Source of the DNA: an uncultured Candidatus Saccharibacteria bacterium
GTDB lineage: Bacteria; Patescibacteriota; Minisyncoccia; Phycocordibacterales; Phycocordibacteraceae
Assembly (NCBI GenBank): GCA_964446735.1
Contig: CAYUQB010000001.1
Coordinates: 380,460-444,459, forward strand
DNA: 64,000 bases
Direction: 5' to 3'
The position numbers and the translations under genes are program-made. This document shows positions 21,032 through 64,000 of this stretch, one piece after another. Below the pieces are notes generated by a model. That model was not told the origin of the DNA and did not search any database. It worked only from the letters and a program-made list of their open reading frames with translations. How positions within the stretch are numbered: position 1 is the first letter of the stretch; every line of letters begins with the position of its first letter.

Positions 21032-21033
21032 TA

Positions 21034-21609
21034 CTATCGTAAATTGCGGAGCGTTGCGGTCTCCTGCAAGGTAATGATATCAGGAGCGCGCATTGGATTG
21101 AGATCGACCATGATGGACGTGGTGATGGCTTCGATCAGTGATACGTCTATCGTCGATGAGGAAATCTCAGTACCCGTTGAATCGTAGTAGCGGAATAGGG
21201 GCGACGAGGTGCCATTGCGTACATAGGTGGCGATAGTCGATGTTGAAGTCGTTCCGGTATACTCCGGCGGATTGCCCGTTGCCTCGGTAATGGTTCGGTA
21301 GAATGTCTCACCGTCGAGAGAAAGTCGGATACGCTCCACCGAATTGTCGCCATCGACATCGCTATAAAACGTAATGGACGACGTGGCTGCGCTTTGGATA
21401 GGAAATGAGCCATCTTCGCCATATGCAGCTTGGCGCAGGTTCTCGAAAGAAATGCGCATACCGCGACGCGCACTATCAATAGCGGAAGTCTGCTGGAGAA
21501 TATAAGAATTCGTACGGTAAAAGTTCACGATGAGACTGTTGATCGTGATGCCCAGAAGCACCGTCACAGAGAGAAGAACCATAACTTCGATTAATGTGAG
21601 GCCGCGCAT
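21034..21609 (-). CDS. type IV pilin / pseudopilin (prepilin N-terminal methylation motif)
   Basis: MRGLTLIEVMVLLSV, a class-III signal G|LTLIE with Glu5; start moved to this internal Met. Confidence 0.65.
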   Translation of the reverse strand: MRGLTLIEVMVLLSVTVLLGITINSLIVNFYRTNSYILQQTSAIDSARRGMRISFENLRQAAYGEDGSFPIQSAATSSITFYSDVDGDNSVERIRLSLDGETFYRTITEATGNPPEYTGTTSTSTIATYVRNGTSSPLFRYYDSTGTEISSSTIDVSLIEAITTSIMVDLNPMRAPDIITLQETATLRNLR

Positions 21610-21619
21610 ATGGGATGTG

Positions 21620-23335
21620 TTATGGGAAGGATGCTGCATAGAAAAGATGGCCGGAAATGGTTACGTCGGTGTAGTTCGTAGTGGTGTATCCGGTCTTGGC
21701 GATCGTAATGGTATAGGTACCACTTGCGAGTCCTCCAAAATACGCGGTTCCGCAGGTGGACGTCGTAACGATTTCCGAACCGCTTGAGCTGTCAGTAAGC
21801 GTAACGGTAGCACCTGAAACACTCGCACCCGTAGTATCTCGTACCCACACGAGCGCACGATGCGTTGTCGCATCTCCTAAGTAGAGCGCAGCTGAATTGG
21901 TTGATCCAGGAGAAAGTGCGTACGGTGGGGCGGCACAAGCCTCAACGACATCATATCCGGTTATAGAAAACGTATAGGAGTCCCACTCAAGTGACAGTGG
22001 GGCTATGCCTGACGCATTCGTTGAGGTACTGAGTGTCGTCTTCAAAATAGGGGCACCACCACCCGTGGACCCGATAACCTTGGTGCCCGAGAGTGTGAAC
22101 GGAACATTCGGTTCGGGAACCGGGCCGACTCGCGAATTAAGGCTCCACGTATCAACTGATGGGGTACTCGACGCGTCAGTCGTGCTCATGGTCGCAACGA
22201 GCGAGAGTGATGGGTAGGTAGAAGTTGAAACAGTGGAGAGATCAATGGAGGTCGATGTAAACCCTGCACTGTTACCAGGCACATCGGCATCAGGAAGTAT
22301 CGTGCCAGCTGCGTCAGCGACCTGCACGCGCACAGTGGTATTACTCGGAGTCAGGAGTGTCGTACTTGCCGTAGTCCAGTACGCAAGCAACGCTGGAGCA
22401 ACTGCGGTTGAACGTGCCGATCCATTGGCGAGATAGCCACCCGCATCGCTTCCTAACTGAAGGCGGCCGCCCGACACCGTTGCGTTGGTGAGAGAGGCAA
22501 GTTGCGAGGAATCGGCAAACGTATCAGTAGTCGAGGTCGCACGTATGGGGTAGTAGGTTGCGAGCGTGAGTGTTGCGAGGGTGTCGATAGCAAACGTTGC
22601 GGTCGTTGTCGTATTTTCAACGACGGTGAAGTATCCCGGAGTGGGGTTCTGATTCACCGCATCGCGCGCATACGTCTGCGCGCTTGAGTAGCCATCCTTG
22701 GATACATATATCTGATATTGCGTTGATGTTGCCGCTCCACCCAGGTACACTGTTCCCGTCACATCCGAGAATGTTGTCACATCGATTGTCGGACTCGTGC
22801 TCGCATTTACTACCTGCACACTTGCACCAGCAACTGGGTCGCCAGTCGCATTCACGACCACGATCTTGAGCGTTCCTCCACCCGTAGTCGTCTCTATCGA
22901 AGCGGGCGCATACGTTGATACGAACGGAAGCTCATAGTACTTACCGCGTAGTTCGTAGGTAACTTCGACTTTTATTCTCTTATAGTCAGTAGTAATGCCG
23001 TTTGTGTCTGCGGCATCGCTCCCATCCGCAGGGTCATCTACGTATCCAATAAAGGTACGGACGCTATACGTAATACCGTTCATGGTCGTAGTCGCGTACT
23101 GCGGAACCACGCCCGCAGGAATGCCTCCAACCGTTCCTACTGAATCATAGGAAAGTGAGCGAACATACTCCATGTGCGTGTTCCCTACCGCAGTTGCACC
23201 GGCGCGAGCCTTCGCGACCGATGCGATGAGAAGCGAACTGCGCAGTAATCCGATCAGCGCAAGAAAAATAATGAGCACTAGCGTAGAACCAACGAGGACA
23301 TCAACCATCGAAAGGCCTCGAGGAGCAGCAGTCAT
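21620..23335 (-). CDS. large (571 aa) pilin-like protein, prepilin-type N-terminus with Asp at +5
   Basis: MTAAPRG|LSMVDVLVGSTLVLIIFLALIG then a Thr/Ser/Gly-rich beta-rich body; candidate tip adhesin or minor pilin. Confidence 0.5.
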   Translation of the reverse strand: MTAAPRGLSMVDVLVGSTLVLIIFLALIGLLRSSLLIASVAKARAGATAVGNTHMEYVRSLSYDSVGTVGGIPAGVVPQYATTTMNGITYSVRTFIGYVDDPADGSDAADTNGITTDYKRIKVEVTYELRGKYYELPFVSTYAPASIETTTGGGTLKIVVVNATGDPVAGASVQVVNASTSPTIDVTTFSDVTGTVYLGGAATSTQYQIYVSKDGYSSAQTYARDAVNQNPTPGYFTVVENTTTTATFAIDTLATLTLATYYPIRATSTTDTFADSSQLASLTNATVSGGRLQLGSDAGGYLANGSARSTAVAPALLAYWTTASTTLLTPSNTTVRVQVADAAGTILPDADVPGNSAGFTSTSIDLSTVSTSTYPSLSLVATMSTTDASSTPSVDTWSLNSRVGPVPEPNVPFTLSGTKVIGSTGGGAPILKTTLSTSTNASGIAPLSLEWDSYTFSITGYDVVEACAAPPYALSPGSTNSAALYLGDATTHRALVWVRDTTGASVSGATVTLTDSSSGSEIVTTSTCGTAYFGGLASGTYTITIAKTGYTTTNYTDVTISGHLFYAASFP

Positions 23336-23360
23336 GCGGATATGATACCGCGAGTATCGC

Positions 23361-24575
23361 CTAGATTTTCGACGACAGAGAGTAAATCGGACTGATCATC
23401 GCGAGTGCAAAGATACCTACCGCCACACCGATTACGAGCATGAGTATCGGCTCAATGATGGTGGAGAGATCTTTGGTACGGTCTTCAACATCCGTCTCGT
23501 AGTACTCCGCTACCTGCCCAAGCATGTCAGCAACTTTTCCGGTTTCCTCACCCACCGCGATCATATCGGCCATAAAGAAGGGATAGAGTTTCCCGTGTTC
23601 AGAGAAGGGAGCCGAGAGCGGGTCGCCCTTCTTCACGCGCTCACTCGCATCACTGACCACCCGACCGAATATGTTATCTCCCACAACCTCGGCAGCGATA
23701 TCGATGGCAGTGACCATTTCAACGCCAGAAGAGAGCAGTGAGGAAAGGGAACGTGCGGCACGAGCGGCAAATGTTTCGCGAACGAGTTCCCCAATGACTG
23801 GTATGCGGAGCGATACCGCAAGAATGATGCGATGCCCGAACCGTGAGTGCGAGAATATGAAGATCCCGCCAAATACCAGAATGAGCGCGAGAAATACGAG
23901 CCCGACGTTTTGTGCCATGAAGTCGGAACTGGCAATGATGATCCGAGTTGCAGTCGGAAGCGCAACCCCGAGCGATTTGAAGGTTGCTGAAAGAGTCGGC
24001 ACGACGTAGATCATCATCAGTACGGCGATGACCACAATGGCCGAAAGAATGATCCCTGGATAAATCATCGCGCCCCGAATCTTCTTCTCGAGTGTGAAGG
24101 AACGGTCCATCTGGCGTGCGACCACCCGAAGCGATTCAGCGAGCTTCCCCGATTCTTCGCCGGCCTTGGTCATCGAAATGAAGAGTCGCGAGAAGATATT
24201 TCGATGCTCAGCAAGGGCCTCATGAAATGCCATACCTTCTTTGATACGCTCTTCAAGCGATCCGACGATTTCTTTTAATCGTCTGTTACGCGTCTGCCGC
24301 GCAATGACCGAGAGTGCTCGAGAAAGCGTGAGGCCCGCCGAGAGCATGGCGGCAAGGTTTTTGGTAAAGGTGATGCGTTCCTCGGTCTTAACACCACTGC
24401 CAATCGTAATGTTCGCAATCTTCGAGATCGAAATGCCACCACCTCCCTCTTCAATGGCAAGGACTCGTCCTCCTTCTTTCTCTATATCTCCGTAAATAGT
24501 GAAGCGCGATGGCGCTTCCATAACGCGCGTCTCTTCTCCACCGTCTTCGCGTTTCATCTTCACGCGGTATTTCAT
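23361..24575 (-). CDS. pilC: type IV pilus assembly platform protein PilC (GspF family)
   Basis: 404 aa; two GspF repeats each with 3 TM segments; MAFHEALAEHRNIFSRLFISM...GEESGKL. Confidence 0.85.
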   Translation of the reverse strand: MKYRVKMKREDGGEETRVMEAPSRFTIYGDIEKEGGRVLAIEEGGGGISISKIANITIGSGVKTEERITFTKNLAAMLSAGLTLSRALSVIARQTRNRRLKEIVGSLEERIKEGMAFHEALAEHRNIFSRLFISMTKAGEESGKLAESLRVVARQMDRSFTLEKKIRGAMIYPGIILSAIVVIAVLMMIYVVPTLSATFKSLGVALPTATRIIIASSDFMAQNVGLVFLALILVFGGIFIFSHSRFGHRIILAVSLRIPVIGELVRETFAARAARSLSSLLSSGVEMVTAIDIAAEVVGDNIFGRVVSDASERVKKGDPLSAPFSEHGKLYPFFMADMIAVGEETGKVADMLGQVAEYYETDVEDRTKDLSTIIEPILMLVIGVAVGIFALAMISPIYSLSSKI

Positions 24576-24602
24576 AAAAAAATTCTAGCACGCAAAAAGC
24601 TC

Positions 24603-24634
24603 GGAGCCGGGTTTCTCGTTCGAGAAACCCGGCT
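24603..24634 (-). terminator. hairpin terminator after small GC-rich membrane ORF
   Basis: 14-bp stem gagccgggtttctc/gagaaacccggctc, then GCTTTTTGCG on the minus strand. Confidence 0.55.
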
Positions 24635-24658
24635 CACGTGCGGCCGATGGAGTGACCG

Positions 24659-24997
24659 CTAGCGCGCGCGAGCGCGCGAGCCGCCGAACAAGGGGGCGAA
24701 GAGGCCTCCGAGGTAGCTCGCGACGACGCCTAGAGCGAACGCAGCGCTGATGTCGTACCCGTCCTCATAGGCGAGGACATTGCGGCACAGCACCGCGCCG
24801 ATGACGCCCAGAAGGACGAAGACGCCTGATGCGAGCAGGCCCTCCGCCCTGATCTTCTGCGCGAGCCAGGTCCAGACGAGGCCCGCTCCCATGATGCCGA
24901 TGGCCCAGGGGATGAAGCCGCCGTCCACCACTGGTAGGCCAAGGGCGGTGCCGGCGAGCACCACTCCGAGTATGGCGGTTAAAACGAACTTGGACAT
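24659..24997 (-). CDS. small GC-rich membrane protein inserted between pilC and pilB
   Basis: 112 aa, 3-4 predicted TM helices, Gly/Ala/Leu-rich; own terminator. Confidence 0.45.
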   Translation of the reverse strand: MSKFVLTAILGVVLAGTALGLPVVDGGFIPWAIGIMGAGLVWTWLAQKIRAEGLLASGVFVLLGVIGAVLCRNVLAYEDGYDISAAFALGVVASYLGGLFAPLFGGSRARAR

Positions 24998-25086
24998 TCT
25001 CTCTATCCTCGCTGAGTCGCGCGTCCATAGCGAACGTTTTCATGCAACTCCTGTCCGCGTTATACCACTCTCACGCTCGGACGCAA

Positions 25087-26841
25087 TTAGCCGTCGTTCA
25101 CTGCGCGAAGCACTTCCTCAACCGAAGTGATGCCCCGTGCTGCTTTGTAAATTCCGTCTTCAAGCATAGTGAGCATGCCTTCTTTGCGTGCCTGCGCTTC
25201 AATGGCGTCGGGGGATGCACTATGCAGCACGAGATCACGAATGGTAGGTGATACGGTCAGAATCTCATGAATGCCAATGCGGCTCTTGTAGCCATCCTCG
25301 CATTCAGCTGAAGGTTTCGGATGGTAAAACGGGAGCGTATCGAGCTTGGTGCCTTCCTTCACCAACTTCTCCTCTTTAAGGGAGGTAAACGCCGCTTCGA
25401 ACTTATCCGCGGTCGCCACTTTATCACGCGCTTGTTGGTCGAGCGTGTACTCTTCTTTGTCATCGCACAGACGACGCACGAGCCGCTGTCCCACGACGAG
25501 TCTGAGCGTGGAGACGAGGAGGAAGGGTTCCACTCCCATGTCCATGAGACGAGGGATGGCACCAGCAGCCGAGTTGGTGTGAATCGTCGAAAGCACGATG
25601 TGACCAGTGAGCGCCGCATTGATCGCAAGCGATGCCGTTTCGCTATCGCGGATCTCACCCACCATGATGATGTTTGGGTCCTGACGCAGCAGTGCGCGCA
25701 GGCCTGCCGCAAAGGTCATACCAATTTGTGGGTTCACCTGCGTTTGGTTGACCCGTTTCATTTGGTATTCAATTGGATCCTCGATGGTGGAAATGTTTAC
25801 GTCCGGCGTATTGAGAATATCGAGAATGGTATAGAGCGTTGTCGTCTTGCCGGAACCGGTCGGACCCGATACCAAAATGATGCCGGTCGTCTGTTTCGTC
25901 GCCATATGAATCCGCTCCAGGGTTTCTCCGTGGAACCCGAGCGCTTCAAGAGTGAAGCCTTCGCCCGTCTCGCGCAGAAGGCGCATCACGATCTTCTCGC
26001 CGTAGTAGGTCGGAAGAAGAGAAACACGGAAGGAAACCTTCTCACCATCGGTCTCCATTTTGAAGCGACCGTCCTGCGGGAGACGCTTCTCATCGAGCTT
26101 TAGGTTCGAGAGCACTTTGATACGTGCGGTGATACCAGGTCCTGCATTCTTCGGAAGCGTCATCGCGTCGTGGAGCATACCGTCAATTCGGTATCGCACG
26201 AGCGTCGCCTCTTCCATGGGCTCAATGTGAATGTCAGACGCGTCCTGAATGATTGCATGACGCAGCAATGTGTCCACGATACGAACGATTGGGAGATCTT
26301 CCGCCATCTTCTTGAGGTCTTCACCCGACGCATCCTCACCGATGGCTTCTTTCACTAAATTAATGCGCCCAGCTTCGGTGGTGATAAGATCGCCGAATTC
26401 TTCTTTGAGAGACTTCTGATATTGCAGGAGGGCGTGCTTGAGCGACTCATCATCCGTAAGTCGGGGCTGAATATTAAAGCCAGTCTTTTTACGTACCGAG
26501 TCGATTGCGGGCAGATCCTGTGTATCGAGCATTGCTACTTCCAGATCGGAACCATCCTTACGAAAGGCGACGATGCTGTGAGTGCGCGCAATAGGCTCTG
26601 GAATAAGTGAAAGCACTTCAAGCGGGATCTTCTTGTCCTTCAGATTCACGAACGGAATGCCAAGAACGTACGCCTTAATGCGACGGAGCGCATCTTGGGT
26701 AAGCGCGCCTTGCGACACGAGAATGTCGCCGATTGATTGCTGACGTTCTTTCGCTTCTGTGTCAGCCGCTTCAACATCTTTGCGCGGCACGAGACCAGAA
26801 TCGAGAATGAACGACTTCAACTCGCTTTCAGAAACTTGCAT
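25087..26841 (-). CDS. pilB: type IV pilus assembly ATPase PilB (GspE family)
   Basis: Walker A LVSGPTGSGKTTTL, Asp box, His box IRDSETASLAINAALTGH; start taken at MQVSESELKSFILD. Confidence 0.9.
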   Translation of the reverse strand: MQVSESELKSFILDSGLVPRKDVEAADTEAKERQQSIGDILVSQGALTQDALRRIKAYVLGIPFVNLKDKKIPLEVLSLIPEPIARTHSIVAFRKDGSDLEVAMLDTQDLPAIDSVRKKTGFNIQPRLTDDESLKHALLQYQKSLKEEFGDLITTEAGRINLVKEAIGEDASGEDLKKMAEDLPIVRIVDTLLRHAIIQDASDIHIEPMEEATLVRYRIDGMLHDAMTLPKNAGPGITARIKVLSNLKLDEKRLPQDGRFKMETDGEKVSFRVSLLPTYYGEKIVMRLLRETGEGFTLEALGFHGETLERIHMATKQTTGIILVSGPTGSGKTTTLYTILDILNTPDVNISTIEDPIEYQMKRVNQTQVNPQIGMTFAAGLRALLRQDPNIIMVGEIRDSETASLAINAALTGHIVLSTIHTNSAAGAIPRLMDMGVEPFLLVSTLRLVVGQRLVRRLCDDKEEYTLDQQARDKVATADKFEAAFTSLKEEKLVKEGTKLDTLPFYHPKPSAECEDGYKSRIGIHEILTVSPTIRDLVLHSASPDAIEAQARKEGMLTMLEDGIYKAARGITSVEEVLRAVNDG

Positions 26842-27353
26842 ATCTATACCAAAAGTATAGCGCGTAACGTGTAACACGCTTGCGATAAAAAGAATAATTG
26901 TGAATCGGAACCCTAGGTTCGCTCTGGTTTCGTTCCAGCAATTTCCAATCGAAAAGTTTTATTGATCCGTGAAACTCGAGCAAGTGCAGAATGTCTCTTC
27001 TGGGTGTCGGCTACTGTATGAAATTGAATAACTTTTTAGCGATGCGCCCAACTACTTGGGGGGAGAACTTACTATCGACTCCTACATTCCGCTACGCGTG
27101 AAATTATTCTTGCTTCAATAATTAATATGAGCGTGAAAGATCTCTTTATACCAGCAGGGATATCGGACTCGTATTAATTTCAAATGGAAGCAGCATGAAA
27201 CGTTTATACACTCAGGACGCGAAGATAAGTTCCGCTCCATCTTGTCTGGATTGACGCCATACCTATATATGGTATCCTTCCGCTATCTGAGATGTCCGCA
27301 CCCGCGGGCATTTCTCTTTAAAAAGGTGCGACAACTGAATAACGCATGGGCTT

Positions 27354-36856: not shown

Positions 36857-36867
36857 ATCAGAACTAG

Positions 36868-36938
36868 TCGGGCCGCGGAGAATCGAACTCCGTCATCATC
36901 CTCCCAAAGGATGCGTACTACCGGTATACGACGGCCCG
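36868..36938 (-). tRNA. tRNA-Pro (anticodon TGG)
   Basis: CGGGCCGTCGTATACCGGTAGTACGCATCCTTTGGGAGGATGATGACGGAGTTCGATTCTCCGCGGCCCGA; anticodon loop TTTGGGA. Confidence 0.7.
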
Positions 36939-37178
36939 TTGTGCTCGAATCCTAGCAGGTTTATACAATTTGGGGCAGTTGGGTATTTTCGAACTTAAAG
37001 GACCTCATGCACTTGATTTTAAATTATCCTTTATTTACTCGATTTTTTAACGACAACCCTTTAATCAAGCCGTTAAGGATATGTCCTTTATCCCCACTGT
37101 TAACACCTTTATCCACCTTTATTCAAGATGTCTCTGTAACCAAATCGCCCCAAATATTGGGGCGATTTGGTATCCAGG

Positions 37179-37249
37179 TGCGGCTAAGGAGAATCGAACT
37201 CCTGTCTCGTCCTTGGCAAGGACGCGTTCTACCACTAAACCATAGCCGC
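37179..37249 (-). tRNA. tRNA-Gly (anticodon GCC)
   Basis: GCGGCTATGGTTTAGTGGTAGAACGCGTCCTTGCCAAGGACGAGACAGGAGTTCGATTCTCCTTAGCCGCA; anticodon loop TTGCCAA. Confidence 0.75.
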
Positions 37250-37290
37250 TTCGGCAGGCATAATAGCACAGCCCTCCCCCGCCCCACTAG

Positions 37291-37362
37291 TGCTCTCGCC
37301 AGGACTCGAACCTGGAACAGCGGTTCCGAAGACCGATGTGATATCCATTTCACCACGAGAGC
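37291..37362 (-). tRNA. tRNA-Arg (anticodon TCG), anticodon stem has one 27-43 mismatch
   Basis: GCTCTCGTGGTGAAATGGATATCACATCGGTCTTCGGAACCGCTGTTCCAGGTTCGAGTCCTGGCGAGAGCA; anticodon loop CTTCGGA. Confidence 0.55.
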
Positions 37363-37424
37363 TCGTGCATCTCATACTACCTTCCGCCTAGGCGAATGGC
37401 CACTCGCATACTAGTATTTTTCTA

Positions 37425-38888
37425 ATGTCCTATCCTATTCCACCAGAGGTAAGTTCCGTAGCCACGAACCTTCGTAAAGAAGGCTTTGAGGCGTACCTCG
37501 TAGGTGGCTGCGTACGTGACCTATTTCTCAAACGAAGCCCTAAAGACTGGGATATTACTACAAATGCAAAACCTGAGGACATCCAGCGCATTTTCCCCGA
37601 CTCATTTTATGAGAATGACTACGGCACAGTTGGGGTTAAAACCGGATCAGAAGACCCTACCCTTTCGATTATTGAAGTTACCCCCTATCGCACAGAATCG
37701 GGGTATTCCGACAAGCGTAGGCCTGACGCCGTTGTGTTCGGCGAAAGTCTCGAGGGGGACCTGGCGCGCCGTGATTTCACCATAAACGCCATTGCCCTCG
37801 ACGAGTCTAAAGGACAAATCATTGATCCGTATAAAGGACAAAAGGACATCGAGGCCAAAGTGCTCCGCACCGTAGGTGACCCGAGTGAAAGATTTGAAGA
37901 GGACGCTCTCCGACTTATGCGGGCTGTACGCCTACTCGCTGAGCTTGGTTTTGCTCTCGATGCTGAAACTGCGAGCGCGATACAGGAAAAAGCCCAAAAT
38001 CTGAGGCATATTTCACGTGAAAGGATTAGGGACGAATTTGTCCGAATTCTTGAATCTGACCAGCCAATGATGGCTCTCGCACTCGCTCAAAAGCTTGGTT
38101 TGCTGGAATTCATCGCTCCTGACGTTTCACGTGGAATAGGTGTAGATCAGAATCAAGCTCACAGCTATGACGTTTTTGAGCACAATTTGCGGGCTCTGCA
38201 GCATGCTGCCGACAAGGGTTGGGCTCTGGATCTTCGGCTCGCAGCGCTTTTTCATGACATTTCTAAGCCTGAGACTCGTAGATGGTCTGATGAAAAGAGG
38301 GACTGGACATTCCATGGTCACGAAGTAGTTGGAGCACGCGTCGCTAAAAGGGCGCTAGAAGACCTCCGTTTTTCACGTGAAATCATCGAAAAAGTGACTA
38401 AATTGGTTCGTTGGCACATGTTCTTCTCTGATCCGGAACAAATAACTCTTTCTGCTGTTAGGCGAATGATAAGGAACGTCAATCAGGAAAACATATGGGA
38501 TTTGCTTAACTTGCGGATTTGCGACCGTATTGGCACGGGTCGGCCAAAGGAGCAGCCGTTCCGCTTCAGGAAGTACAAGGCGATGGTGGAAGAAGCGCTC
38601 AGAGACCCAATTTCCGTCGGAATGCTCAAAACCGATGGTAGCCGGATTATGAGCCGCTTTCACGTGGAACCGGGTCCCAAAATAGGCCATATTCTTCACG
38701 CCTTGCTTGAGGAAGTCCTTGAGGACCCTCAAAAAAACTCCGAAGAGCTTCTCGATAAGAGAACGGAGGAGCTCCTAAGCCTCTCAGAGGCTGAACTTGC
38801 AAAGCGGGGCGAGGCTGGAAAACGTAAGAAAAGCGAGGAAGAGGAGAGGGAAGTCCAGGAAATACTCAAAAAACACCACGTGGCCTAG
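37425..38888 (+). CDS. cca: CCA-adding tRNA nucleotidyltransferase (PolyA-pol head + HD domain)
   Basis: AYLVGGCVRDLFL, DWDITT, RRDFTINA; HD domain FHDISKPE; 487 aa. Confidence 0.85.
   Translation: MSYPIPPEVSSVATNLRKEGFEAYLVGGCVRDLFLKRSPKDWDITTNAKPEDIQRIFPDSFYENDYGTVGVKTGSEDPTLSIIEVTPYRTESGYSDKRRPDAVVFGESLEGDLARRDFTINAIALDESKGQIIDPYKGQKDIEAKVLRTVGDPSERFEEDALRLMRAVRLLAELGFALDAETASAIQEKAQNLRHISRERIRDEFVRILESDQPMMALALAQKLGLLEFIAPDVSRGIGVDQNQAHSYDVFEHNLRALQHAADKGWALDLRLAALFHDISKPETRRWSDEKRDWTFHGHEVVGARVAKRALEDLRFSREIIEKVTKLVRWHMFFSDPEQITLSAVRRMIRNVNQENIWDLLNLRICDRIGTGRPKEQPFRFRKYKAMVEEALRDPISVGMLKTDGSRIMSRFHVEPGPKIGHILHALLEEVLEDPQKNSEELLDKRTEELLSLSEAELAKRGEAGKRKKSEEEEREVQEILKKHHVA
38011..38022. 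repeat. parS-like palindrome TTTCACGTGAAA (copy 1, inside cca)
   Basis: perfect 12-bp palindrome; core of the canonical ParB-binding parS tGTTtCACGTGAAACa. Confidence 0.5.
38125..38136. repeat. degenerate parS-like site TTTCACGTGGAA (inside cca)
   Basis: 11/12 match to the repeated palindrome. Confidence 0.3.
38371..38382. repeat. parS-like palindrome TTTCACGTGAAA (copy 2, inside cca)
   Basis: perfect 12-bp palindrome, in a different codon frame and context than copy 1. Confidence 0.5.
38658..38669. repeat. degenerate parS-like site TTTCACGTGGAA (inside cca)
   Basis: 11/12 match. Confidence 0.3.
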
Positions 38889-38889
38889 C

Positions 38890-38901
38890 TTTCACGTGAA
38901 A
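38890..38901. repeat. parS-like palindrome TTTCACGTGAAA (copy 3, just after cca stop)
   Basis: perfect 12-bp palindrome. Confidence 0.5.
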
Positions 38902-38914
38902 TACCTCAAATAGA

Positions 38915-38967
38915 AAGAGGCCCTACGAAATGGACATAAGCTTTACGTGCATTTCGTAGGGCCTCTT
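38915..38967. repeat. 18-bp perfect inverted repeat with 17-nt loop (long hairpin) downstream of cca
   Basis: aagaggccctacgaaatg ... catttcgtagggcctctt; could act as a terminator but is unusually long; flanked by parS-like sites. Confidence 0.5.
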
Positions 38968-39077
38968 CACTTTCGATGCATACCGCGTTTGGAGGCGTAA
39001 AATTGGAGCTGGGGCTTGTTTTGGTTTCCTCCAGGAGATATGTGGGTTTGCATCGATCTTCAAAGAACTTGATGCGC

Positions 39078-39089
39078 TTTCACGTGAAA
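39078..39089. repeat. parS-like palindrome TTTCACGTGAAA (copy 4, intergenic)
   Basis: perfect 12-bp palindrome. Confidence 0.5.
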
Positions 39090-39300
39090 TCACGGCTGAA
39101 CCCTCTTTTAATTCAGGAGATACGCTCCGATTACGTAGGACGGCCTTTTTCGCGTGTTTACGCCTGATCGAAAGAACTCTCAAAGAACAACCGTCCCGGG
39201 ATTGCTCTTTGAAGTCTCTCGACCATTGAGCCGTCCCGCTGTTCTTTAGTATATTTCCTTATAGGACAATGTAAAGGACATGGATCTGTGGATATGTCCT

Positions 39301-40092
39301 TTAGATTTCTATAGACACTGGGCAGTGATCTGACCCCTCTACTTCTGGGTGCACATCTCCTTTCTGTATATGTTTTGCGAAAGATTTGGTCGCGAACACG
39401 TAATCAATGCGCCAACCGACATTTCGCTCCCGAGCGTTACCCCAGTGGCTCCACCACGTATAGAATCCATTCCCTTGTTTAAACATTCGGAACGTATCAA
39501 CGAAGCCCGCATTGATGATATTATCGATACCCTCACGCTCCTCTCTCGTAAATCCTTTCATCCCTTCATTTTCCTTTGGTCGAGCAAGGTCGTCTGCGGT
39601 GTGTGCAACGTTTAAATCACCACAGAAAATAACAGGTTTTTCTTCTTCAAGGCGCTTCATGTATTCAAGGAAAGCGGGGTCCCAATGTTTGTGACGAAGG
39701 GTGAGACGCGAAAGATCATCCTTGGCATTCGGCGTGTAGACCGACACTACGTAAAAATCATGCATATCGGCTGCGACGATTCTTCCTTCCTGGTTCGGGT
39801 CGCCATATCCATCTCCTGCAAGTCCCCATTTTTCTGCTAGGTCGTCGGGCATGCCGAAGATGACGTCGTTGGGTGTCATCTTGGTGAATATTGCGGTACC
39901 GCTGTACCCCTTCTTTTTCGCGGAACTCCAGAACTCCTCATAGTCCGGGAGATCCAGCGGAGATTGGTGCTGCTCTGCTTTTGTTTCTTGAAGGCAGAGA
40001 ATATCTGGCTTGTACTTCTTAATGAAGGGGAGGAAGAGTCCTTTCTTATGAACGGCGCGTATGCCGTTCACGTTCCAGCTCATGATGCGCAT
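39301..40092 (-). CDS. xth: exodeoxyribonuclease III (AP endonuclease)
   Basis: MRIMSWNVNGIRA, CLQETK, SDHCPVSIEI. Confidence 0.9.
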   Translation of the reverse strand: MRIMSWNVNGIRAVHKKGLFLPFIKKYKPDILCLQETKAEQHQSPLDLPDYEEFWSSAKKKGYSGTAIFTKMTPNDVIFGMPDDLAEKWGLAGDGYGDPNQEGRIVAADMHDFYVVSVYTPNAKDDLSRLTLRHKHWDPAFLEYMKRLEEEKPVIFCGDLNVAHTADDLARPKENEGMKGFTREEREGIDNIINAGFVDTFRMFKQGNGFYTWWSHWGNARERNVGWRIDYVFATKSFAKHIQKGDVHPEVEGSDHCPVSIEI

Positions 40093-48949: not shown

Positions 48950-49018
48950 GTAGTGCACAGAAGTGCTCATGGTTTCCTCATGAAATAACGCCCACGTGCT
49001 AGTATTTTTGTATATACC

Positions 49019-50008
49019 GTGGCGTATTCTAACCGAACCATCGGCATCATCATCGCTTCGGCTATCTCGATAGTCCTTATTATCGGTGCCGTTTTGATCT
49101 CAGGTCCACTTCCATTCAAATGGAATCGGGTGAGCGCCACCTCAACGCATGATCTCCTCGTTTCATATGCATCTAAGGACACGGACGCGGATGGGTTGCC
49201 TGATTGGCAGGAGGCACTCTACGCAACAGACCCGAACGACGCCCACTCGGTTCGGGCTGACATCTTAGACGGGCAGGCCGTTGCCCAAGGATTGGTTGCG
49301 CCGAAGTTTGCTACAGCAACAACGACAACTGACACCACTGCAATACCGGGAGTAGAGAGCGGTCCTGATACCCTGACCGATCAGTTCGCACGTGAGCTTT
49401 TCACACAGTATGTGTCGCAGGCAGGGAATTCAACACCAACTCCCGAGACGATCGCTTCGTTTGTTGAACAGGCAGTTGCGAATCTCACCGCACGCAATTC
49501 AAGCGTAAACGAATTTGATCAGAGTGACGTTAAGACGAGTGGTACCGGAGAGGACGCATTGCTTGTGTACGCTGCACAAATTGAAGGAGTGTTTGCCAAA
49601 AATACAGCTCCATCTGAAAAAAGTGAAATCGAGTATCTCGCCGATGCGGTGCAGAAGAATGACAAGGCGGCACTCAAGGAAGTGAAGCGTATTGGTGCAA
49701 CGTACACCTCGCTCGCAAAAGGGTATGTTGCAACCGCGGTGCCGTCCGAGGCAGTGACCCCTCATCTTGAAGTGGCGAATGCACTCGCCCGTATTGGTAC
49801 CGATATTACCGACTTCTCAATGATGGATACGGATCCGCTTCGTGCCTATTTTGGTCTTGCCAAGTATCAAGAAGACGTCCCGAAGCTTGTGGCGGGTCTG
49901 AAGGCGCTGAATGCCGTGTACACGAGCGAAGGGGTAGTGGTCCCTGAAGGAACTTCCGGATTCTACTTCTTCAGACTCCTTACCCGCTCAGCAACACAAG
50001 AACTATGA
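49019..50008 (+). CDS. membrane-anchored hypothetical protein (first gene of T4SS-like locus)
   Basis: N-terminal TM IGIIIASAISIVLIIGAVLI; DTDADGLPDWQE calcium-binding-like repeat. Confidence 0.4.
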   Translation: MAYSNRTIGIIIASAISIVLIIGAVLISGPLPFKWNRVSATSTHDLLVSYASKDTDADGLPDWQEALYATDPNDAHSVRADILDGQAVAQGLVAPKFATATTTTDTTAIPGVESGPDTLTDQFARELFTQYVSQAGNSTPTPETIASFVEQAVANLTARNSSVNEFDQSDVKTSGTGEDALLVYAAQIEGVFAKNTAPSEKSEIEYLADAVQKNDKAALKEVKRIGATYTSLAKGYVATAVPSEAVTPHLEVANALARIGTDITDFSMMDTDPLRAYFGLAKYQEDVPKLVAGLKALNAVYTSEGVVVPEGTSGFYFFRLLTRSATQEL

Positions 50009-51507
50009 GTTCCCTCCGTAAACCCGTTGCGCTATTCCTTTGTGGACTCATAGTCGCAGGCGGTGCGGTTGGACTTGCTCCTCGACCGGCGCATGCGCAG
50101 TTGTTCGGAGCTTCCCTCGTCCTCGACCCGGTAAACCTTGTGCAGAATACAATCTCGGCGGTCGCGAACGCGAAGACCCTTCTCAATCCTATCTTCTATC
50201 GCATTGCACAGGCAGCCATTCAATCGATGGTGCGCAGTACCGTTAACTGGATAAACAATGGATTCGAAGGTTCCCCGGCATTCGCTACGGATCTTAAATA
50301 CACCCTCCTGGATGCAGCCGACCGGGAAGCGGAACGGTTCGTGCGACAGATTGGAAGCGACCTATCAATAAGCTCTCCGTTTCAGAATAGGATCGCCCAG
50401 AACGTACTTGCTGCATACTACCTGTCCACCAGTCGAGATGGGTTCGCACTCGCTAATCCCTATACGCTCAACCGGGTGAGCGAAGACGATGCGGCATTCT
50501 TGCGTGGTGATTTTACGAAGGGCGGGTTCTCGGCATGGTTCGCCGCCACGTTGAATCTTCCGAATACGCCTCGTGGCTTTAATGAACTAGCTCGTTCAGC
50601 GTTCTATGATCGAGTCGCCGATGTTAAAGGTCAGATTCACGAAGAAGTTGGGTGGGGGGATGGCTTTCTGTCCTGGCGTAAGTGTGACAAAGAGGGAACC
50701 AAACTCGTCGACAATTCGAAGACTTCCACTATTACGACACTTGATGGCAAGCAAGAGCAGCTTAAGACACTCAACCTGCAGGAAAAGAAAACCTGTCTTG
50801 AGAGTCACATTGAAACCCCCGGCTCAATTATTTCCTCAGCCGGGGCCAAGGCTCTCGGTCTCGGAGCAGATTCACTGATCCAAGCGGATAGTTTCGACGA
50901 AATCGTAAATGCGCTTCTTGGACAACTCATGAACCAGGTACTTGGTGGGGGAGGAGGGCTTCGTGGGGTATCACGTCCGTCAGCAGCACGGGGCGGCGGA
51001 ACCTACTTCGATCAACAAACAAGTACGACCGCGAGTGCTGGAGTCTCAGTCGTAAGTTCATTCACTCAGATACTCGACGAACAAGCGACACAAATCCAAA
51101 TATATCTGCGTAATTGGCAGACCATTAGTGCTGCTGCAGTGGCTGCGAAAGCTGCACTTGAAGCAAGCACCTGCACCGCTAACAAAGACTCAATTATTAG
51201 TACTCAGATAGAACCAGTTATTACTCGCGCAGCGACAATTGCAGGAAGTATACCCAGCGTACTTTCAGAGATTGAACGTATTCGCTCGTCAGCGTTGAGT
51301 GTCGTTACGGACGATACCACTGAGCAACTCACAGTGCTCCAGCAAGCAAATGCTGACTACCAAAATCTGCTATCTAATACCGCATTCCCAAGCGTGAGTG
51401 ATATGACATATGCGATAGAGCAGTCGCAAGACACCGGCAACGAAACACCCGCATCACTCCTTACGGAACTCAACCGCATTGCAGCACAAGCCCGGTGCAG
51501 TACCTAA
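50005..51507 (+). CDS. secreted hypothetical protein
   Basis: signal peptide ...GLAPRPAHA|QLF; 500 aa; 4-bp overlap with upstream gene. Confidence 0.4.
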   Translation: MSSLRKPVALFLCGLIVAGGAVGLAPRPAHAQLFGASLVLDPVNLVQNTISAVANAKTLLNPIFYRIAQAAIQSMVRSTVNWINNGFEGSPAFATDLKYTLLDAADREAERFVRQIGSDLSISSPFQNRIAQNVLAAYYLSTSRDGFALANPYTLNRVSEDDAAFLRGDFTKGGFSAWFAATLNLPNTPRGFNELARSAFYDRVADVKGQIHEEVGWGDGFLSWRKCDKEGTKLVDNSKTSTITTLDGKQEQLKTLNLQEKKTCLESHIETPGSIISSAGAKALGLGADSLIQADSFDEIVNALLGQLMNQVLGGGGGLRGVSRPSAARGGGTYFDQQTSTTASAGVSVVSSFTQILDEQATQIQIYLRNWQTISAAAVAAKAALEASTCTANKDSIISTQIEPVITRAATIAGSIPSVLSEIERIRSSALSVVTDDTTEQLTVLQQANADYQNLLSNTAFPSVSDMTYAIEQSQDTGNETPASLLTELNRIAAQARCST

Positions 51508-51511
51508 ACGT

Positions 51512-54500
51512 ATGGCAACGTACTTGCACATAATTCGCAGCCTTGGACTCGGGATACTGATAGCTGTATCCCTTCTGCTCTTTGCTGCTCCTAGTGCGAA
51601 TGCCGCCGATCCCGCTATCGCGATACCGAACGGGAAAACACTTAAACCAAACGGTCAGGTGTGTAAGGCTATCAACCCGCTCACCGGCATGCAGGATGGC
51701 TCAGTCGCACTGGTACTTGAGACCGGGGGATTCTGCCAGCTGCAGTTTACTGACGGCACGCAACTCACGGTTGAATTCAGTGCAGGGAAGCAGACCCAGA
51801 CCGGAACACTTCGGGATGCGAACGGTAAAACTATCGGTACCCCAGAAACGAAGTCGTGGATTGAAGGAGCGCAAGAAGCTGTTGATCAAGCGGCAGCGGC
51901 AACAACGGCAGCAGAGAAAAGCGCCGTCACTGCAGCACGTGCGGCGGTCGCTGCACCATCAACCGGAGCCCGAAATACGCCACTCTCAGCCAATGAAGCG
52001 ACCGCATTGTACAAAAAAGTTGAGTACTTGAGTTCCCGTAACCTCATAACGATCGCAGAAAGGGATAAGCTCAATAGCATCATATTTGCAGCAGGTACGG
52101 GGGGTGCGTCACAGGCACAGCTCGATAGTGTCCGAAAAATGGGGACGGCGGTCGATACACTTAATGCAAACGTTGGGCGGTCCGCCGACGTAAATACCGC
52201 TGCTAAAGAGGCAGCGTCTGCACAACAGGAGACCGCCGCTGAAGCAGAGAAGTCCTGCAACATTGTGAGTTTCAATCTTGGGACCTGTCTTCAGAGCATT
52301 ATGTGGGCAATTATTAAGAAAATCGGTCTTTTCTTCCTCTACCTCGCTGCATTCTTTGCTGGGTTTGCAGGCTTCCTCTTCAATTGGATTATTTACATAA
52401 CGGTATTTCAGTTTGGAAACTTGATTGGAAATAACGCGGGCATGCTTGCGGCATGGGGTGTACTGCGCGATATCGGCAATCTGGTACTTCTGTTCGGATT
52501 CATTTTCATGGGCTTGAGTACCATTCTGAGTCTTCCTGGAAATGAGTTCACCGCCCGTAGAGCACTTCCTGCCCTCATCATTTTTGCCATACTCATGAAC
52601 TTCAGCCTCTTCGCTGCAGAGGCGGTTATTGATACGAGTAACGCGCTGGGGACCACACTATACCGACAAGCCGCGAACGGCATGTGCGGGGAAGGTGAGT
52701 CAATGCTTACGTGTGTCACCCAAAAGGGAATCGGCGGACGCATCATGCAAATCACCGGAATCGCCTCAATATTTAGTCTCGACCCCGACAAAGAGGATGT
52801 GATCGCTAACGATGATCTTGGTGGAGCGATAGAAGTCATCGGCCTCACCATATTTGCGGCGGTCACTGCATTTGTGTTCCTGGCTGCGGTCTTCATGCTC
52901 ATTGCGCGTGCAATCATGCTCGCCTTCCTTATGGCGGTGTCGCCCATCGGATTTGCTGGCATGGCGATACCACCCCTTCACCGCTACGCCTCTATGTGGT
53001 GGGAACAACTACTCAAGCAGTCATTCTTTGCACCTATATATATCCTCCTGGTGCTTATTAGCATTAAATTCATGGAGGGAATTATCGTGGCGCTGAATGC
53101 CGCGGCAGGAGCAGGTAGCACCACTGAAGTTTCTACACTCGCAAGCGCCTTCAGCCGTTCTGGCATCACGAACGTGAGCATGGTGGTCAACTTCATGCTC
53201 ATTACTGGCTTCATGCTTGGTGCAGTCATAATCGCCAAAAGCATGGGTGCGGCAGGGGCAAGTGGCGCTACTCGCATGGCTGGTGCAGTGGTCTTTGGTG
53301 GTATGGCTCGGGCTTCAAACTTCGGCATCGGCGGAGCATCACGACTTGCACGACTAGGAGTACAGCGCACACTTGGCAAAAGCGACAGTGCATTCGTTCG
53401 TGGGATTGGTTCTGGTGCCTCAGCCTTTCTCAAGGGTGGTGAGAAACTCAACACTGACTTGCGTGGTGTAGCAGGGAAGCGCGGAGCGGACCTCTTTGGC
53501 GCTCCTGCACAAAAAGCATCGTATGACGACGTGCAGAACAAGATCCAGGAAGTACGAGAAGGTATTCGTGCGAATCAGGCTACATTCGATCGCGATGCCT
53601 CGCTCCAGCGCCTGCGAAGTGAGGTTGGTAGAAAGGGAGGTCTCTCTCCAGAAAGCGAGCGTTTCCTCGCAACCCTTTCTGCGGACGAAATTGCACACGA
53701 TCATGACCTTGAACACAAGATTGGAGATCTTGCACCGCTTCTGTCTGCAAGCCAGTTCGAAAACCTCACGCGCAGCGACAAGGTTCCGCAGAAACTCAAG
53801 GACGAGGCTCGTCGCGAACGCTATGCTGAACTCAAGGATGCAATTCTCAATTCTAGGAAGGGTGGTATACGCAAGATGACTCCAAAGGATCTCGAGCAGT
53901 TCTTCCTTTCGCCGATCTATGCAGAACTTAAGACGGAGAACGAAGAAGCACTCAAGGAATTCGTGACACTCATGAATGGTGGCCAGTACGATACTCTACG
54001 CGCAAGTACTGTGCTCACGAATGCACAACGTTCAGAAATCAAGAGGTGGCGCGATGATGATCGCTTCAACTTCGGTGAATTCAACGATCTCCGCAGTGGC
54101 AAGCAGGTTGAATTCAAGCAGGCTATCAGCATGGACGGTAACCGTAAGCCGCTCTATGTCGACCCATCCACGGGTAGAGTCACCGAAGATGTCACCTCAG
54201 TTAAGGCTACCCGTATCGACCGCACGCTCGACGATCTCAACACCGCCGATCGAGCAAAGCTTGAAGACAAGATCCTCGCTCGTGAGGAAGTATTTACGCG
54301 TCTCGCACCGGAAGACTTCGCCGCGATCCAGCGTGCCGACAAGCTCGAACCTCCGCAACGAAGAGCCGTCAGTGCTCACCTTAATGCTGTATTTAATGAG
54401 AAATCAGCTCGCGGCGATCGCTTCCGCGCGTACCGCGATACCATGAGCGATAATGCGTGGAAGTCGATGAAAGCCTTCTACCAACTTAGTACGGACAAAG

Positions 54501-54559
54501 CGAAGACGAAACGCTCGAAAGCAACAACTGACGATGGTAGCGACGACGGCACAACATGA
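51512..54559 (+). CDS. giant polytopic membrane protein, candidate VirB6/TrbL-like channel component
   Basis: signal/anchor, ~270-aa extracytoplasmic domain, 6-7 TM helices, ~450-aa charged C-terminal domain; ORF opens at 51479, start set at MATYLHII. Confidence 0.4.
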   Translation: MATYLHIIRSLGLGILIAVSLLLFAAPSANAADPAIAIPNGKTLKPNGQVCKAINPLTGMQDGSVALVLETGGFCQLQFTDGTQLTVEFSAGKQTQTGTLRDANGKTIGTPETKSWIEGAQEAVDQAAAATTAAEKSAVTAARAAVAAPSTGARNTPLSANEATALYKKVEYLSSRNLITIAERDKLNSIIFAAGTGGASQAQLDSVRKMGTAVDTLNANVGRSADVNTAAKEAASAQQETAAEAEKSCNIVSFNLGTCLQSIMWAIIKKIGLFFLYLAAFFAGFAGFLFNWIIYITVFQFGNLIGNNAGMLAAWGVLRDIGNLVLLFGFIFMGLSTILSLPGNEFTARRALPALIIFAILMNFSLFAAEAVIDTSNALGTTLYRQAANGMCGEGESMLTCVTQKGIGGRIMQITGIASIFSLDPDKEDVIANDDLGGAIEVIGLTIFAAVTAFVFLAAVFMLIARAIMLAFLMAVSPIGFAGMAIPPLHRYASMWWEQLLKQSFFAPIYILLVLISIKFMEGIIVALNAAAGAGSTTEVSTLASAFSRSGITNVSMVVNFMLITGFMLGAVIIAKSMGAAGASGATRMAGAVVFGGMARASNFGIGGASRLARLGVQRTLGKSDSAFVRGIGSGASAFLKGGEKLNTDLRGVAGKRGADLFGAPAQKASYDDVQNKIQEVREGIRANQATFDRDASLQRLRSEVGRKGGLSPESERFLATLSADEIAHDHDLEHKIGDLAPLLSASQFENLTRSDKVPQKLKDEARRERYAELKDAILNSRKGGIRKMTPKDLEQFFLSPIYAELKTENEEALKEFVTLMNGGQYDTLRASTVLTNAQRSEIKRWRDDDRFNFGEFNDLRSGKQVEFKQAISMDGNRKPLYVDPSTGRVTEDVTSVKATRIDRTLDDLNTADRAKLEDKILAREEVFTRLAPEDFAAIQRADKLEPPQRRAVSAHLNAVFNEKSARGDRFRAYRDTMSDNAWKSMKAFYQLSTDKAKTKRSKATTDDGSDDGTT

Positions 54560-55332
54560 TTCCCGACGAAACTGCCATTGATAAAGCCCTAGAGACCGCA
54601 CCGCAACCCGTGTCTGACTTCATCGTGGGTGGCCATCTCGCCAACGCGGTCGTCGCCATTGCGCATGAACACCAACTTCATGTCGATACAATCGGAACGC
54701 TCGCAGAGCTTTCTCGTAACATGCTCCTCGGACTTTCAAGCCCTGCCGAAACACTGGGCGAGCTCATTGTTGCAGGTGTGGACACTGCAACTGCACAAAC
54801 AGTGCTCGCAGACCTTAACGTGAAGGTGTTTATGCCAGTTCGAGACGCGGTGAAGACTGGTACTAATCCGTTCGCACTCGATCGGGATACAGATGAGACG
54901 CCCGAGGTACGCACGGCAGCTGTCGCACCCACACCTGCACCAGCGTCGTCCGCAAGGCCTTCCTCCCCGCCCCTCGTACCACCGCTAGAGCTTGTCGAAC
55001 GTCCGGTACCTGCACCTATTGTTCCGCCAGTGTCCGTAAGTCGGCCTGTCGAAGTTCCAGTGCCGAACGTCGTTGCACCCAACGTGGCAGCCTCAGGTCT
55101 GCCGGACGAAGCGGTACGCACGATGGCATCGGATATGCAGGCAGTGAAAGAACACCGCACGCCCACCCCAATAGTTCCTTCCGTGGTGATTCCAACGACA
55201 CAAGTACAGACAATAGCAGCACCGCCACTTCCTCCGACGCCACCTCGCACCGCACCTCCTCCGGCAAATCTTCCTGGTGCAGCAGCGGTAAAGCCATACA
55301 GTGTAGATCCGTATCGTGAACCGATAGAGTAG
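54556..55332 (+). CDS. hypothetical Pro-rich protein
   Basis: 258 aa; PTPAPASSARPSSPPLVPPLE and PPLPPTPPRTAPPPANLP tracts; translationally coupled to upstream gene. Confidence 0.35.
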   Translation: MIPDETAIDKALETAPQPVSDFIVGGHLANAVVAIAHEHQLHVDTIGTLAELSRNMLLGLSSPAETLGELIVAGVDTATAQTVLADLNVKVFMPVRDAVKTGTNPFALDRDTDETPEVRTAAVAPTPAPASSARPSSPPLVPPLELVERPVPAPIVPPVSVSRPVEVPVPNVVAPNVAASGLPDEAVRTMASDMQAVKEHRTPTPIVPSVVIPTTQVQTIAAPPLPPTPPRTAPPPANLPGAAAVKPYSVDPYREPIE

Positions 55333-55378
55333 AAAATTTTGTGCATACCGCTGCTAGAGCGCGGTATACTTACGTACG

Positions 55379-55801
55379 ATGGAGTACCAGGTACCGCAGT
55401 TCATCGAGGTAGAGGACAAGATTTTCGGTCCATTCACCCTAAAACAGTTTATCTACCTTGCTGGCGGAGGCGGTCTTTCAGCAGTCATTCTCCTGTATGT
55501 GCGTCCACTCTTTCTCGCATTCGTTCTTGTTGCACCTATCGCAGCGCTCTCTGCCGCACTTGCATTCTATAGAGTAAACAACAAGTCTTTTGTTGAGGTG
55601 CTCGAAGCAGCGTTCAACTATTACACCAAGGGACGTCTCTACCTGTGGCGTAAGGAGAAAAAGGAAGAGTCTGCTTCGGTTCCCCAGGCACCGACACCAG
55701 TAGTTCCCGAACGTCAAAAACTTGGCCTGTCCCAGCGCAAGCTTCAGGATCTGGCATGGTCGCTGGATATTAAGGACGCAAGTTCGAACCAGAATTCATA
55801 A
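55379..55801 (+). CDS. PrgI/VirB3-like small T4SS membrane protein
   Basis: MEYQVPQFIEVEDKIFGPFTLKQFIYLAGGGG + two TM helices; pattern shared by PrgI/TcpE-type proteins that precede VirB4. Confidence 0.55.
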   Translation: MEYQVPQFIEVEDKIFGPFTLKQFIYLAGGGGLSAVILLYVRPLFLAFVLVAPIAALSAALAFYRVNNKSFVEVLEAAFNYYTKGRLYLWRKEKKEESASVPQAPTPVVPERQKLGLSQRKLQDLAWSLDIKDASSNQNS

Positions 55802-55804
55802 GAT

Positions 55805-56443: not shown

Positions 56444-56444
56444 T

Positions 56445-58265: not shown

Positions 58266-58274
58266 TAGCGAGAT

Positions 58275-59743: not shown

Positions 59744-59744
59744 T

Positions 59745-60710: not shown

Positions 60711-60712
60711 CT

Positions 60713-63148: not shown

Positions 63149-63155
63149 ATGATTG

Positions 63156-63321: not shown

Positions 63322-64000
63322 ATGCAGAAACTCGATGCGCGTGAACTTTGGGAATATGTGCTCACCCAAGTCGAGCTGTCTATCTCTCCTGCAAACTTCA
63401 ATACCTGGTTTCGGGATAGTTCTATCGTAAAAATCGAGGACGGTATTGTATATGTCGGTGTACCGAGCCAATTCTTTCGCGATTGGTACCTCAAGAAGTT
63501 CCATACGCTTCTTTTGAAAATCATCCGCTCTGTCTCATACGAGTACCGGAATATTGAATACGTGATTGTGAAGGACGATCGCCGGAAACCTAAGGAAATA
63601 CGTCGTTCTTCTGGGCCAATCCAAGTAGCAGAACTCCCACTCGACGAGTTCTATGTAAATAAAAGCGACAATCTCAACCCTCGCTATACGTTCGATACCT
63701 TCGTCGTCGGAGCGTTTAATGAGCTCGCGCATACTGCCGCGCAGGCGATTTTGAAGCGTCCAGGCATTATGTACAATCCACTCTTCATTTATGGAGAGAC
63801 TGGTCGTGGTAAGACACATCTTATCCAGTCCATTGGAAATCAGTACAAGAAGCTCTATCCGAACCGGAAAGTCTTCTACCTCACTGCGGACAAATTCGGA
63901 AACGAATACACCGATTCAATTCAACACGGAACGGCAAATCGCTTTAAAGAGAAGTACCGTCAGTACGACTTGCTCATCATGGATGATATTCAGTTCTTCG
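63322..64000 (+). CDS. dnaA: chromosomal replication initiator DnaA, N-terminal part (runs off window end)
   Basis: MQKLDARELWEYVLTQVELSISPANFNTWF...NPLFIYGETGRGKTHLIQSIGN (Walker A)...LLIMDDIQFF; upstream in-frame stop at 63232; not in ORF track because it is open-ended. Confidence 0.9.
   Translation, partial: MQKLDARELWEYVLTQVELSISPANFNTWFRDSSIVKIEDGIVYVGVPSQFFRDWYLKKFHTLLLKIIRSVSYEYRNIEYVIVKDDRRKPKEIRRSSGPIQVAELPLDEFYVNKSDNLNPRYTFDTFVVGAFNELAHTAAQAILKRPGIMYNPLFIYGETGRGKTHLIQSIGNQYKKLYPNRKVFYLTADKFGNEYTDSIQHGTANRFKEKYRQYDLLIMDDIQFF

Follow-up and report, generated by a model that had tools for sequence, protein, structure and literature searches.

A 64,000-nucleotide stretch (the window) of contig CAYUQB010000001.1 from the genome of an uncultured Patescibacteria (Paceibacteria/Kaiserbacteria-like) bacterium contains six copies of a 12-bp palindrome in and just downstream of cca, the gene for CCA-adding tRNA nucleotidyltransferase. 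On the sequence evidence, we consider it highly probable that these six palindromes form a parS array, that is, the chromosomal centromere of this genome and the presumptive loading zone of the partition protein ParB. Several characteristics of the array support this reading: (i) the motif is confined to one locus, (ii) its consensus is that of canonical parS, (iii) the codons that carry it within cca are frozen, and (iv) dnaA lies 24 kb away. A preliminary description of the window had proposed a parS-type centromere near the origin that is selected at the level of DNA, and these features bear the proposal out.

A search of the window for TTTCACGTGAAA with at most one mismatch returned six copies, four of them perfect (starting at 38011, 38371, 38890 and 39078) and two, of the form TTTCACGTGGAA, matching at 11 of 12 positions (38125 and 38658); every coordinate and sequence in the preliminary description was correct. 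In dinucleotide-preserving shuffles of the window, an average of 0.26 matches was obtained, and not one of 100 shuffles had as many as six. No further copy was found elsewhere in the 64 kb even when two mismatches were allowed, and thus the parS-like class is sharply bounded and does not grade into a tail of degenerate repeats. Four of the six sites lie inside cca (37425..38888, plus strand), whose HD-domain product matches the Pfam families PolyA_pol, PolyA_pol_RNAbd, HD and tRNA_NucTran2_2. These are site 1 (38011..38022, taTTTCACGTGAAAgg, perfect) in codons 196-200 (ISRER), site 2 (38125..38136, cgTTTCACGTGGAAta, 11/12) in codons 234-238 (VSRGI), site 3 (38371..38382, ttTTTCACGTGAAAtc, perfect) in codons 316-320 (FSREI), and site 4 (38658..38669, gcTTTCACGTGGAAcc, 11/12) in codons 412-415 (FHVE), the last in another codon phase. 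Site 5 (38890..38901, gcTTTCACGTGAAAta, perfect) starts 2 nt past the cca stop codon, and site 6 (39078..39089, gcTTTCACGTGAAAtc, perfect) is intergenic, in the spacer between cca and a convergent exonuclease III-family gene (xth-like; 39301-40092, minus strand). All six fall within 1.1 kb at irregular spacings of 114-287 bp, and comparison of their flanks revealed no similarity among the copies beyond 12-16 bp.

The canonical parS sequence reads TGTTTCACGTGAAACA. The relatives that we compared are the best 80 of 575 candidate GTDB stretches encoding a cca homologue, with amino-acid identities of 62-80%; all 80 are Patescibacteria, labelled Paceibacteria, Kaiserbacteria or Parcubacteria, and they include the complete genomes CP174359 and CP174360 (PMC12239599). 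In the logo of 237 pooled sites the 12-mer extends to (t)GTTTCACGTGAAAC(a), the preceding G being present in 46% and the following C in 57% of sites; in the non-coding sites of a distant clade, the outer G is found in 72% of half-sites. Exact TGTTNCACGTGAAACA has six matches in five relatives, and the 14-mer GTT[TC]CACGTG[AG]AAC has 32 matches in 27 relatives, all of them in the cluster zone. Mismatches among the pooled sites concentrate at position 3 of the 12-mer (T>C) and at the mirror position 10 (A>G). Position 3 is the degenerate N of the published parS consensus, and these mismatches agree with the TGTTCCACGTGGAAC variants reported for Myxococcus and Pseudomonas (PMC7022226). The window sites themselves agree with TGTTNCACGTGAAACA over the central 12 bp perfectly in four cases and at 11 of 12 positions in two, the mismatch being at the mirror of N, and over the full 16-mer at 12-13 of 16 positions. 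Judged by the pooled consensus of the relatives, their exact 16-mers and the placement of mismatches at the N position, the motif is canonical chromosomal parS and not merely parS-like. The preliminary description had recognized the 12-mer as the parS core, and the extension of the relatives' consensus to canonical parS, exact TGTTNCACGTGAAACA copies included, confirms it.

Comparison of cca codons between site-bearing and site-free genomes shows that selection is on the DNA and not on the protein: it is as DNA elements that sites arise, persist and disappear, in some cases by changing residues of the cca product. At site 38011, codon choice is mixed (TCA/TCT/TCC/TCG, AAA/AAG, GAA/GAG, CGN/AGR) in the site-free relatives, which encode ISKERI. 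Site-bearing genomes, which include most close relatives at the same codon position, encode [IV]SRER[IV] with a K>R change and with TCA-CGT-GAA-AGR essentially fixed; the site uses AGR and not the more common CGN, so that the final A of the motif is retained. Site 38125 is present only in the window and in one relative (L013), and is thus a recent gain via amino-acid replacement: elsewhere among the relatives the peptide is DL[ITVE]RGIG, its codons vary, and its change to DVSRGIG (L>V, I/T>S) created the site. Of the aligned cca genes, 31 (counting that of the window) have a perfect copy at site 38371, and in most relatives GAA is followed by ACN, which gives the canonical C flank. At site 38658 many relatives read xxG TT[TC] CAC GTG [AG]AA CCx, which makes up the 14-mer given above. 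Codon entropy, calculated over 58 close cca genes (that of the window and 57 relatives; mean 1.41 bits), ranks site 38011 at 19 of 485, site 38371 at 50 of 485 and site 38658 at 1 of 484, the lowest four-codon window in cca. Frozen synonymous codons at these three conserved in-gene sites thus uphold the earlier claim of selection at the DNA level. The argument originally offered for it, that three in-gene copies stand in different frames, is weaker than stated, since there are four such copies and three of them share one phase (xTT TCA CGT GRA Axx, encoding S-R-E/G), site 38658 alone being different.

The same zone holds the motif across the relatives. From 3.5 kb upstream to 2 kb downstream of cca, the 80 loci and the window contain 236 copies with at most one mismatch, and the other 857 kb of these sequences contain none; a further set of loci (L081-L088), about 125 kb with partial overlap among themselves and with the window, likewise has none. 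Together with the lack of any additional copy in the window, these counts argue against the concern that the motif might occur at similar density elsewhere. Genomes have a median of three and a maximum of seven sites over a median span of 0.9 kb, and the array is conserved as DNA in at least 74 related species. All six site-less genomes belong to the distant clade (<71% cca identity), and their contigs cover less than 2 kb of the region upstream of cca, in which this clade keeps its cluster. In close relatives, sites are found at the codon positions used in the window (at offsets of 586, 946 and 1233 from the start of cca) and, just downstream of the gene, at positions that vary. Counted from the start of cca, many of them have an equivalent of site 5 at +1465 to +1476, and a gcTTTCACGTGGAAcN-form site that recurs in relatives at +1650 to +1750 looks homologous to site 6. 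In the distant clade the coding positions are empty, and the cluster is non-coding, between tRNA-Pro and tRNA-Gly upstream of cca. The genome CP174359 (L058) has about 11 sites, including degenerate ones, in 0.8 kb, and two of these read TGTTTCACGTGAAACg. A 132-aa open reading frame (L058 7784-8182, minus strand) is located within this non-coding array and is overlapped by several degenerate parS copies. The cluster is positional and not tied to a gene, and its sites turn over between coding and non-coding DNA.

The preliminary description had placed the cluster near the origin, at about 25 kb from dnaA. The 5' part of dnaA is indeed present at the end of the window (63322..64000, plus strand, start at about 63322), as evident from its open frame and N-terminus, and runs off the window end; a tblastn search with a DnaA AAA+ fragment matched 63802-63999 with 45% identity (E 3e-13). 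Its classical neighbours adjoin it in divergent orientation, all on the minus strand: yidC (61948-62673; Pfam 60KD_IMP on an identical product) and rnpA (62685-63002; Pfam Ribonuclease_P on an identical product), both supported by their translations, and 63005-63163, which we take to be rpmH from the L34-type sequence of its translation. The distance from site 6 to the dnaA start is 24.2 kb, on a source contig no shorter than 516,752 bp. A block resembling type IV secretion and conjugation systems (about 49000-61950, plus strand) adjoins yidC-rnpA-rpmH|dnaA. It includes VirB6/TrbL-like (51479-54559), TraC-like, VirB4/TraG-like ATPase (56310-58265) and VirB2/TrbC-like (59622-60710) genes and several large proteins without a family match.

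Under the established ParABS model, the array would function as follows. A ParB dimer would recognize each TTTCACGTG[A/G]AA core via its helix-turn-helix, and binding to parS would trigger closure of a clamp dependent on cytidine triphosphate. The clamps would then slide away along the neighbouring DNA and leave the site open to another round of loading; because each site is freed in this way, six sites in 1.1 kb would make a high-throughput loading zone. One partition complex about 24 kb from dnaA would position and segregate the origin region, and would probably recruit SMC. By analogy with this model, we infer ParB binding, spreading and segregation at the array.

Several observations weigh against the assignment of the array as a ParB-loaded centromere. 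First, the outer G/C is kept in only 2 of 12 half-sites of the window, the lowest proportion among multi-site genomes. Similarly low proportions are found in L003 (2/10) and L014 (1/6). Coding constraint does not explain this loss, since both non-coding sites of the window lack the outer G/C too; it may be drift that is tolerated since the six sites act together, or may reflect a changed reading protein. Second, and this is the main reservation, tblastn searches of the window (64 kb) and of the 80 related loci (1.29 Mb) detected neither canonical ParB nor ParA (the queries were Spo0J, Soj and two canonical ParBs from a database, P0005 and P0006). The Soj query had no homologue in either set; some bacteria, such as Streptococcus pneumoniae, have parS and ParB without ParA (PMC7022226). 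Third, no enrichment of DnaA boxes that would mark oriC was observed in the window. Finally, the motif distribution covers the window and ±10 kb around cca in the relatives, and the site counts across relatives are not independent, as many sites are homologous.

These observations bear directly on the strongest competing explanation, according to which the lineage has no canonical ParB and its centromere-like array is read by another protein, either a divergent ParB-family member with GHRR and GKSV motifs or an unrelated protein that binds the 12-bp core. We regard this explanation as unlikely. It would account for the outer G/C loss in this genome, and the failure to find a canonical ParB in the searched loci speaks for it as well. 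If it were true, the specificity of ParB and parS would have shifted in a bacterium of the Candidate Phyla Radiation (CPR), and the missing outer G/C would be the mark of this shift on the DNA.

The only ParB-family gene of the window, and the sole match to Spo0J and the two canonical ParBs, encodes a divergent ParB-like protein of 401 aa (9735-10940, plus strand; ParB_N, with TIGR00180 below threshold). The gene is solitary, without a ParA neighbour, and its product has a long acidic, helical C-terminal extension; the closest solved relative is Caulobacter ParB 6T1F (E 1.5e-14). R173 of Caulobacter ParB forms a hydrogen bond with the outer G of parS, and both this residue and G201 are invariant in ParB orthologues (10.1101/724823). 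The window protein has V at the position of R173 (GKSR to GKSV) and R at that of N178, other family members have V, M or Y at 173, and in the family GERR is changed to GHRR and the K171/S172 positions also diverge. The valine and the sparse outer G/C of the window sites would fit a non-canonical reader, whereas the divergence at N178 and K171/S172 and the presence of low G/C flanks in other relatives do not favour it. The family is small, with three relatives found by sequence search and about 15 clusters among 5.8 billion proteins found by profile search, and its one named member is from Patescibacteria. None of these clusters was matched to cca-bearing contigs, the two complete genomes included, whereas the array is present in at least 74 species; the surroundings of the family genes vary, and no parS-like motif is found less than 10 kb from them. 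The coincidence of V173 in the ParB-like protein with the lost outer G is therefore not supported by the distribution. The preliminary description had suggested this protein as the cognate binder, a suggestion that we do not retain: with R173 and N178 lost, a sporadic family distribution and a gene far from any site, the ParB-like protein is unlikely to read the conserved array.

ParB does occur in the phylum, since canonical ParB with HTH_ParB and a C-terminal domain is abundant in Saccharibacteria; the best 120 matches are all of Saccharibacteria type, and none of these 120 was matched to the cca contigs of the relatives. Two canonical ParBs that share sequence words with the atypical family were considered as the ParB of this lineage and rejected, as their contexts do not look like those of CPR genomes.

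Regulation of cca, xth or neighbouring genes by a transcription factor that binds the CACGTG palindrome, with the six sites as its operators, is very improbable. Two of the sites are intergenic (38890 and 39078), and ParB-type and other palindrome binders can repress nearby genes (PMC7022226). However, four of the six sites lie deep within coding sequence, the extended consensus agrees with parS over 14-16 bp, and the location of the sites shifts in the relatives between the cca gene, the region downstream of it and the tRNA spacer upstream, so that they have no constant relation to a promoter. In the window, a scan revealed no association of the sites with promoters or terminators and no sigma-70-like promoter that overlaps any of them. 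A generic origin of the copies is hardly credible, whether they are taken as dispersed repeats, mobile-element ends, restriction-modification or methylation motifs, or by-products of conserved peptides and codon bias. In its favour, CACGTG has the form typical of type II restriction palindromes, and three in-gene sites share the S-R-E/G peptide pattern in one codon phase. Against it, the motif is absent from the remaining 63 kb of the window and from the 857 kb of flanks, the copies share nothing past 12-16 bp, relatives with the same peptides in other codons lack the motif, which is also kept in non-coding DNA, and no Rfam family other than tRNA matches the region.

The tRNA genes near cca comprise tRNA-Gly, tRNA-Pro, tRNA-Gly and tRNA-Arg, of which tRNA-Pro(tgg), tRNA-Gly(gcc) and tRNA-Arg(tcg) form a block upstream of cca (36867..37362, minus strand). 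The order of these three is constant in the window and in the related genomes L058, L060, L064, L066, L070 and L071. Their orientations flip individually: the three genes are on the plus strand in L058 and on the minus strand in the window, and L060, L064 and L066 have them on both strands. This suggests repeated small inversions around the centromere array. Other neighbours encode a RarA/MgsA-like ATPase, a trypsin-like protease, a XerC/D-type recombinase and an NYN-domain protein. As the Rfam matches in the region were limited to tRNA families, a structured RNA element was rejected as an explanation of the palindromes. A 135-aa open reading frame (37007-37414, plus strand) was discarded as a candidate binder; it has no family match and is an artefact over the opposite-strand tRNA-Gly and tRNA-Arg genes.

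The DNA that separates sites 5 and 6 contains a perfect inverted repeat (GAGGCCCTACGAAATG / CATTTCGTAGGGCCTC, 38917..38965, within inverted repeat I1) with arms of 16 bp and a loop of 17 nt, probably the hairpin at the end of the cca transcript; it is not called by a simple terminator scan because it has no T-tract. A second inverted repeat, AAAGGACAT-N12-ATGTCCTTT, is located at 39268-39307, at the 3' end of the exonuclease III gene, and the word AAAGGACA occurs twice in tandem within cca (37805-37850). Farther from the array, type IV pilus-type genes occupy 19610-26877 on the minus strand, including a PilB-like T2SSE ATPase (25087-26877), a PilC-like T2SSF protein (23361-24575), a 571-aa protein with CarboxypepD_reg/SpaA-like domains and a 473-aa protein without a family match. 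The first 12 kb of the window, with the genes for EF-Tu, EF-G, S7/S12 and the ParB-like protein, have a G+C content of about 0.57, compared with about 0.52 in the rest.

Our search, limited to the literature library at hand, found no published description of parS or ParB for Patescibacteria, Parcubacteria or Paceibacteria. The reconstruction of the six sites as parS would place a ParABS-type centromere in Paceibacteria, within the CPR, and would provide an origin-domain marker for tiny and mostly fragmentary genomes. It would also illustrate the strength of centromere selection, as sites are kept in an essential tRNA-maturation gene via frozen codons and even residue changes, and individual sites turn over, yet the array stays in one synteny block. 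With no parAB nearby and the outer G lost, it raises the question of the identity of the protein that reads the array. Both the density of the sites and their maintenance inside a gene are within known ParABS biology, and the known picture is unchanged.

One of the closest known systems is chromosomal parS of the Bacillus subtilis type (TGTTNCACGTGAAACA): the central 12 bp are identical, with variation at the N position and its mirror, the sites are origin-proximal and lie within coding sequences, and exact 16-mers occur in the relatives studied here (PMC7022226). The differences are that the outer positions G2/C15 and T1/A16 of the window sites are at background frequency, and that no cognate parB or parA adjoins the sites or was detected in the window and the 80 loci. 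In B. subtilis the parS sites are spread over the origin domain, in contrast to the packing within 1.1 kb described here.

Clustered chromosomal parS arrays share with the window the arrangement of several close sites that form one ParB nucleation zone near oriC, and the TTCCACGTGGAA-type variants of Myxococcus and Pseudomonas match the TTTCACGTGGAA copies (PMC7022226). Chromosomes have 2-22 origin-proximal parS sites, with 22 in Myxococcus xanthus, 5 in Caulobacter crescentus, 10 in Corynebacterium glutamicum and parS1-4 in Pseudomonas aeruginosa (PMC7022226). The density of sites, which the preliminary description had called unusual, is thus not exceptional, as chromosomal clusters of 5-22 sites are known. 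The arrays considered here differ in being denser (6 sites in 1.1 kb in the window and about 11 in 0.8 kb in L058), in belonging to a far smaller genome (about 0.5-0.7 Mb), and in being anchored to a tRNA/cca/xth/xerC-like synteny block and not to a parAB operon.

The Noc binding sites (NBS) of Firmicutes (TATTTCCCGGGAAATA) are 16-bp parS-derived palindromes read by a ParB paralogue, with C at half-site position 6 and A at position 1, and the window site taTTTCACGTGAAAgg has an NBS-like A at the outer position. All six window sites have the core CACGTG and not CCCGGG, by which Noc-type sites are ruled out; if the parS sites, which fit TTTCCCGGGAAA with two mismatches, are set aside, the window has no TTTCCCGGGAAA-like NBS. 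NBS are scattered over the chromosome, unlike the cluster in the window (10.1101/724823). Plasmid arrays such as F sopC and the RK2/KorB sites likewise present dense, short binding sites of ParB-family proteins as a loading platform. Their sequences are plasmid-specific and usually stand in regular tandem spacing beside the par operon, whereas the array of the window has irregular spacing, a chromosomal core-gene context and the chromosomal parS sequence.

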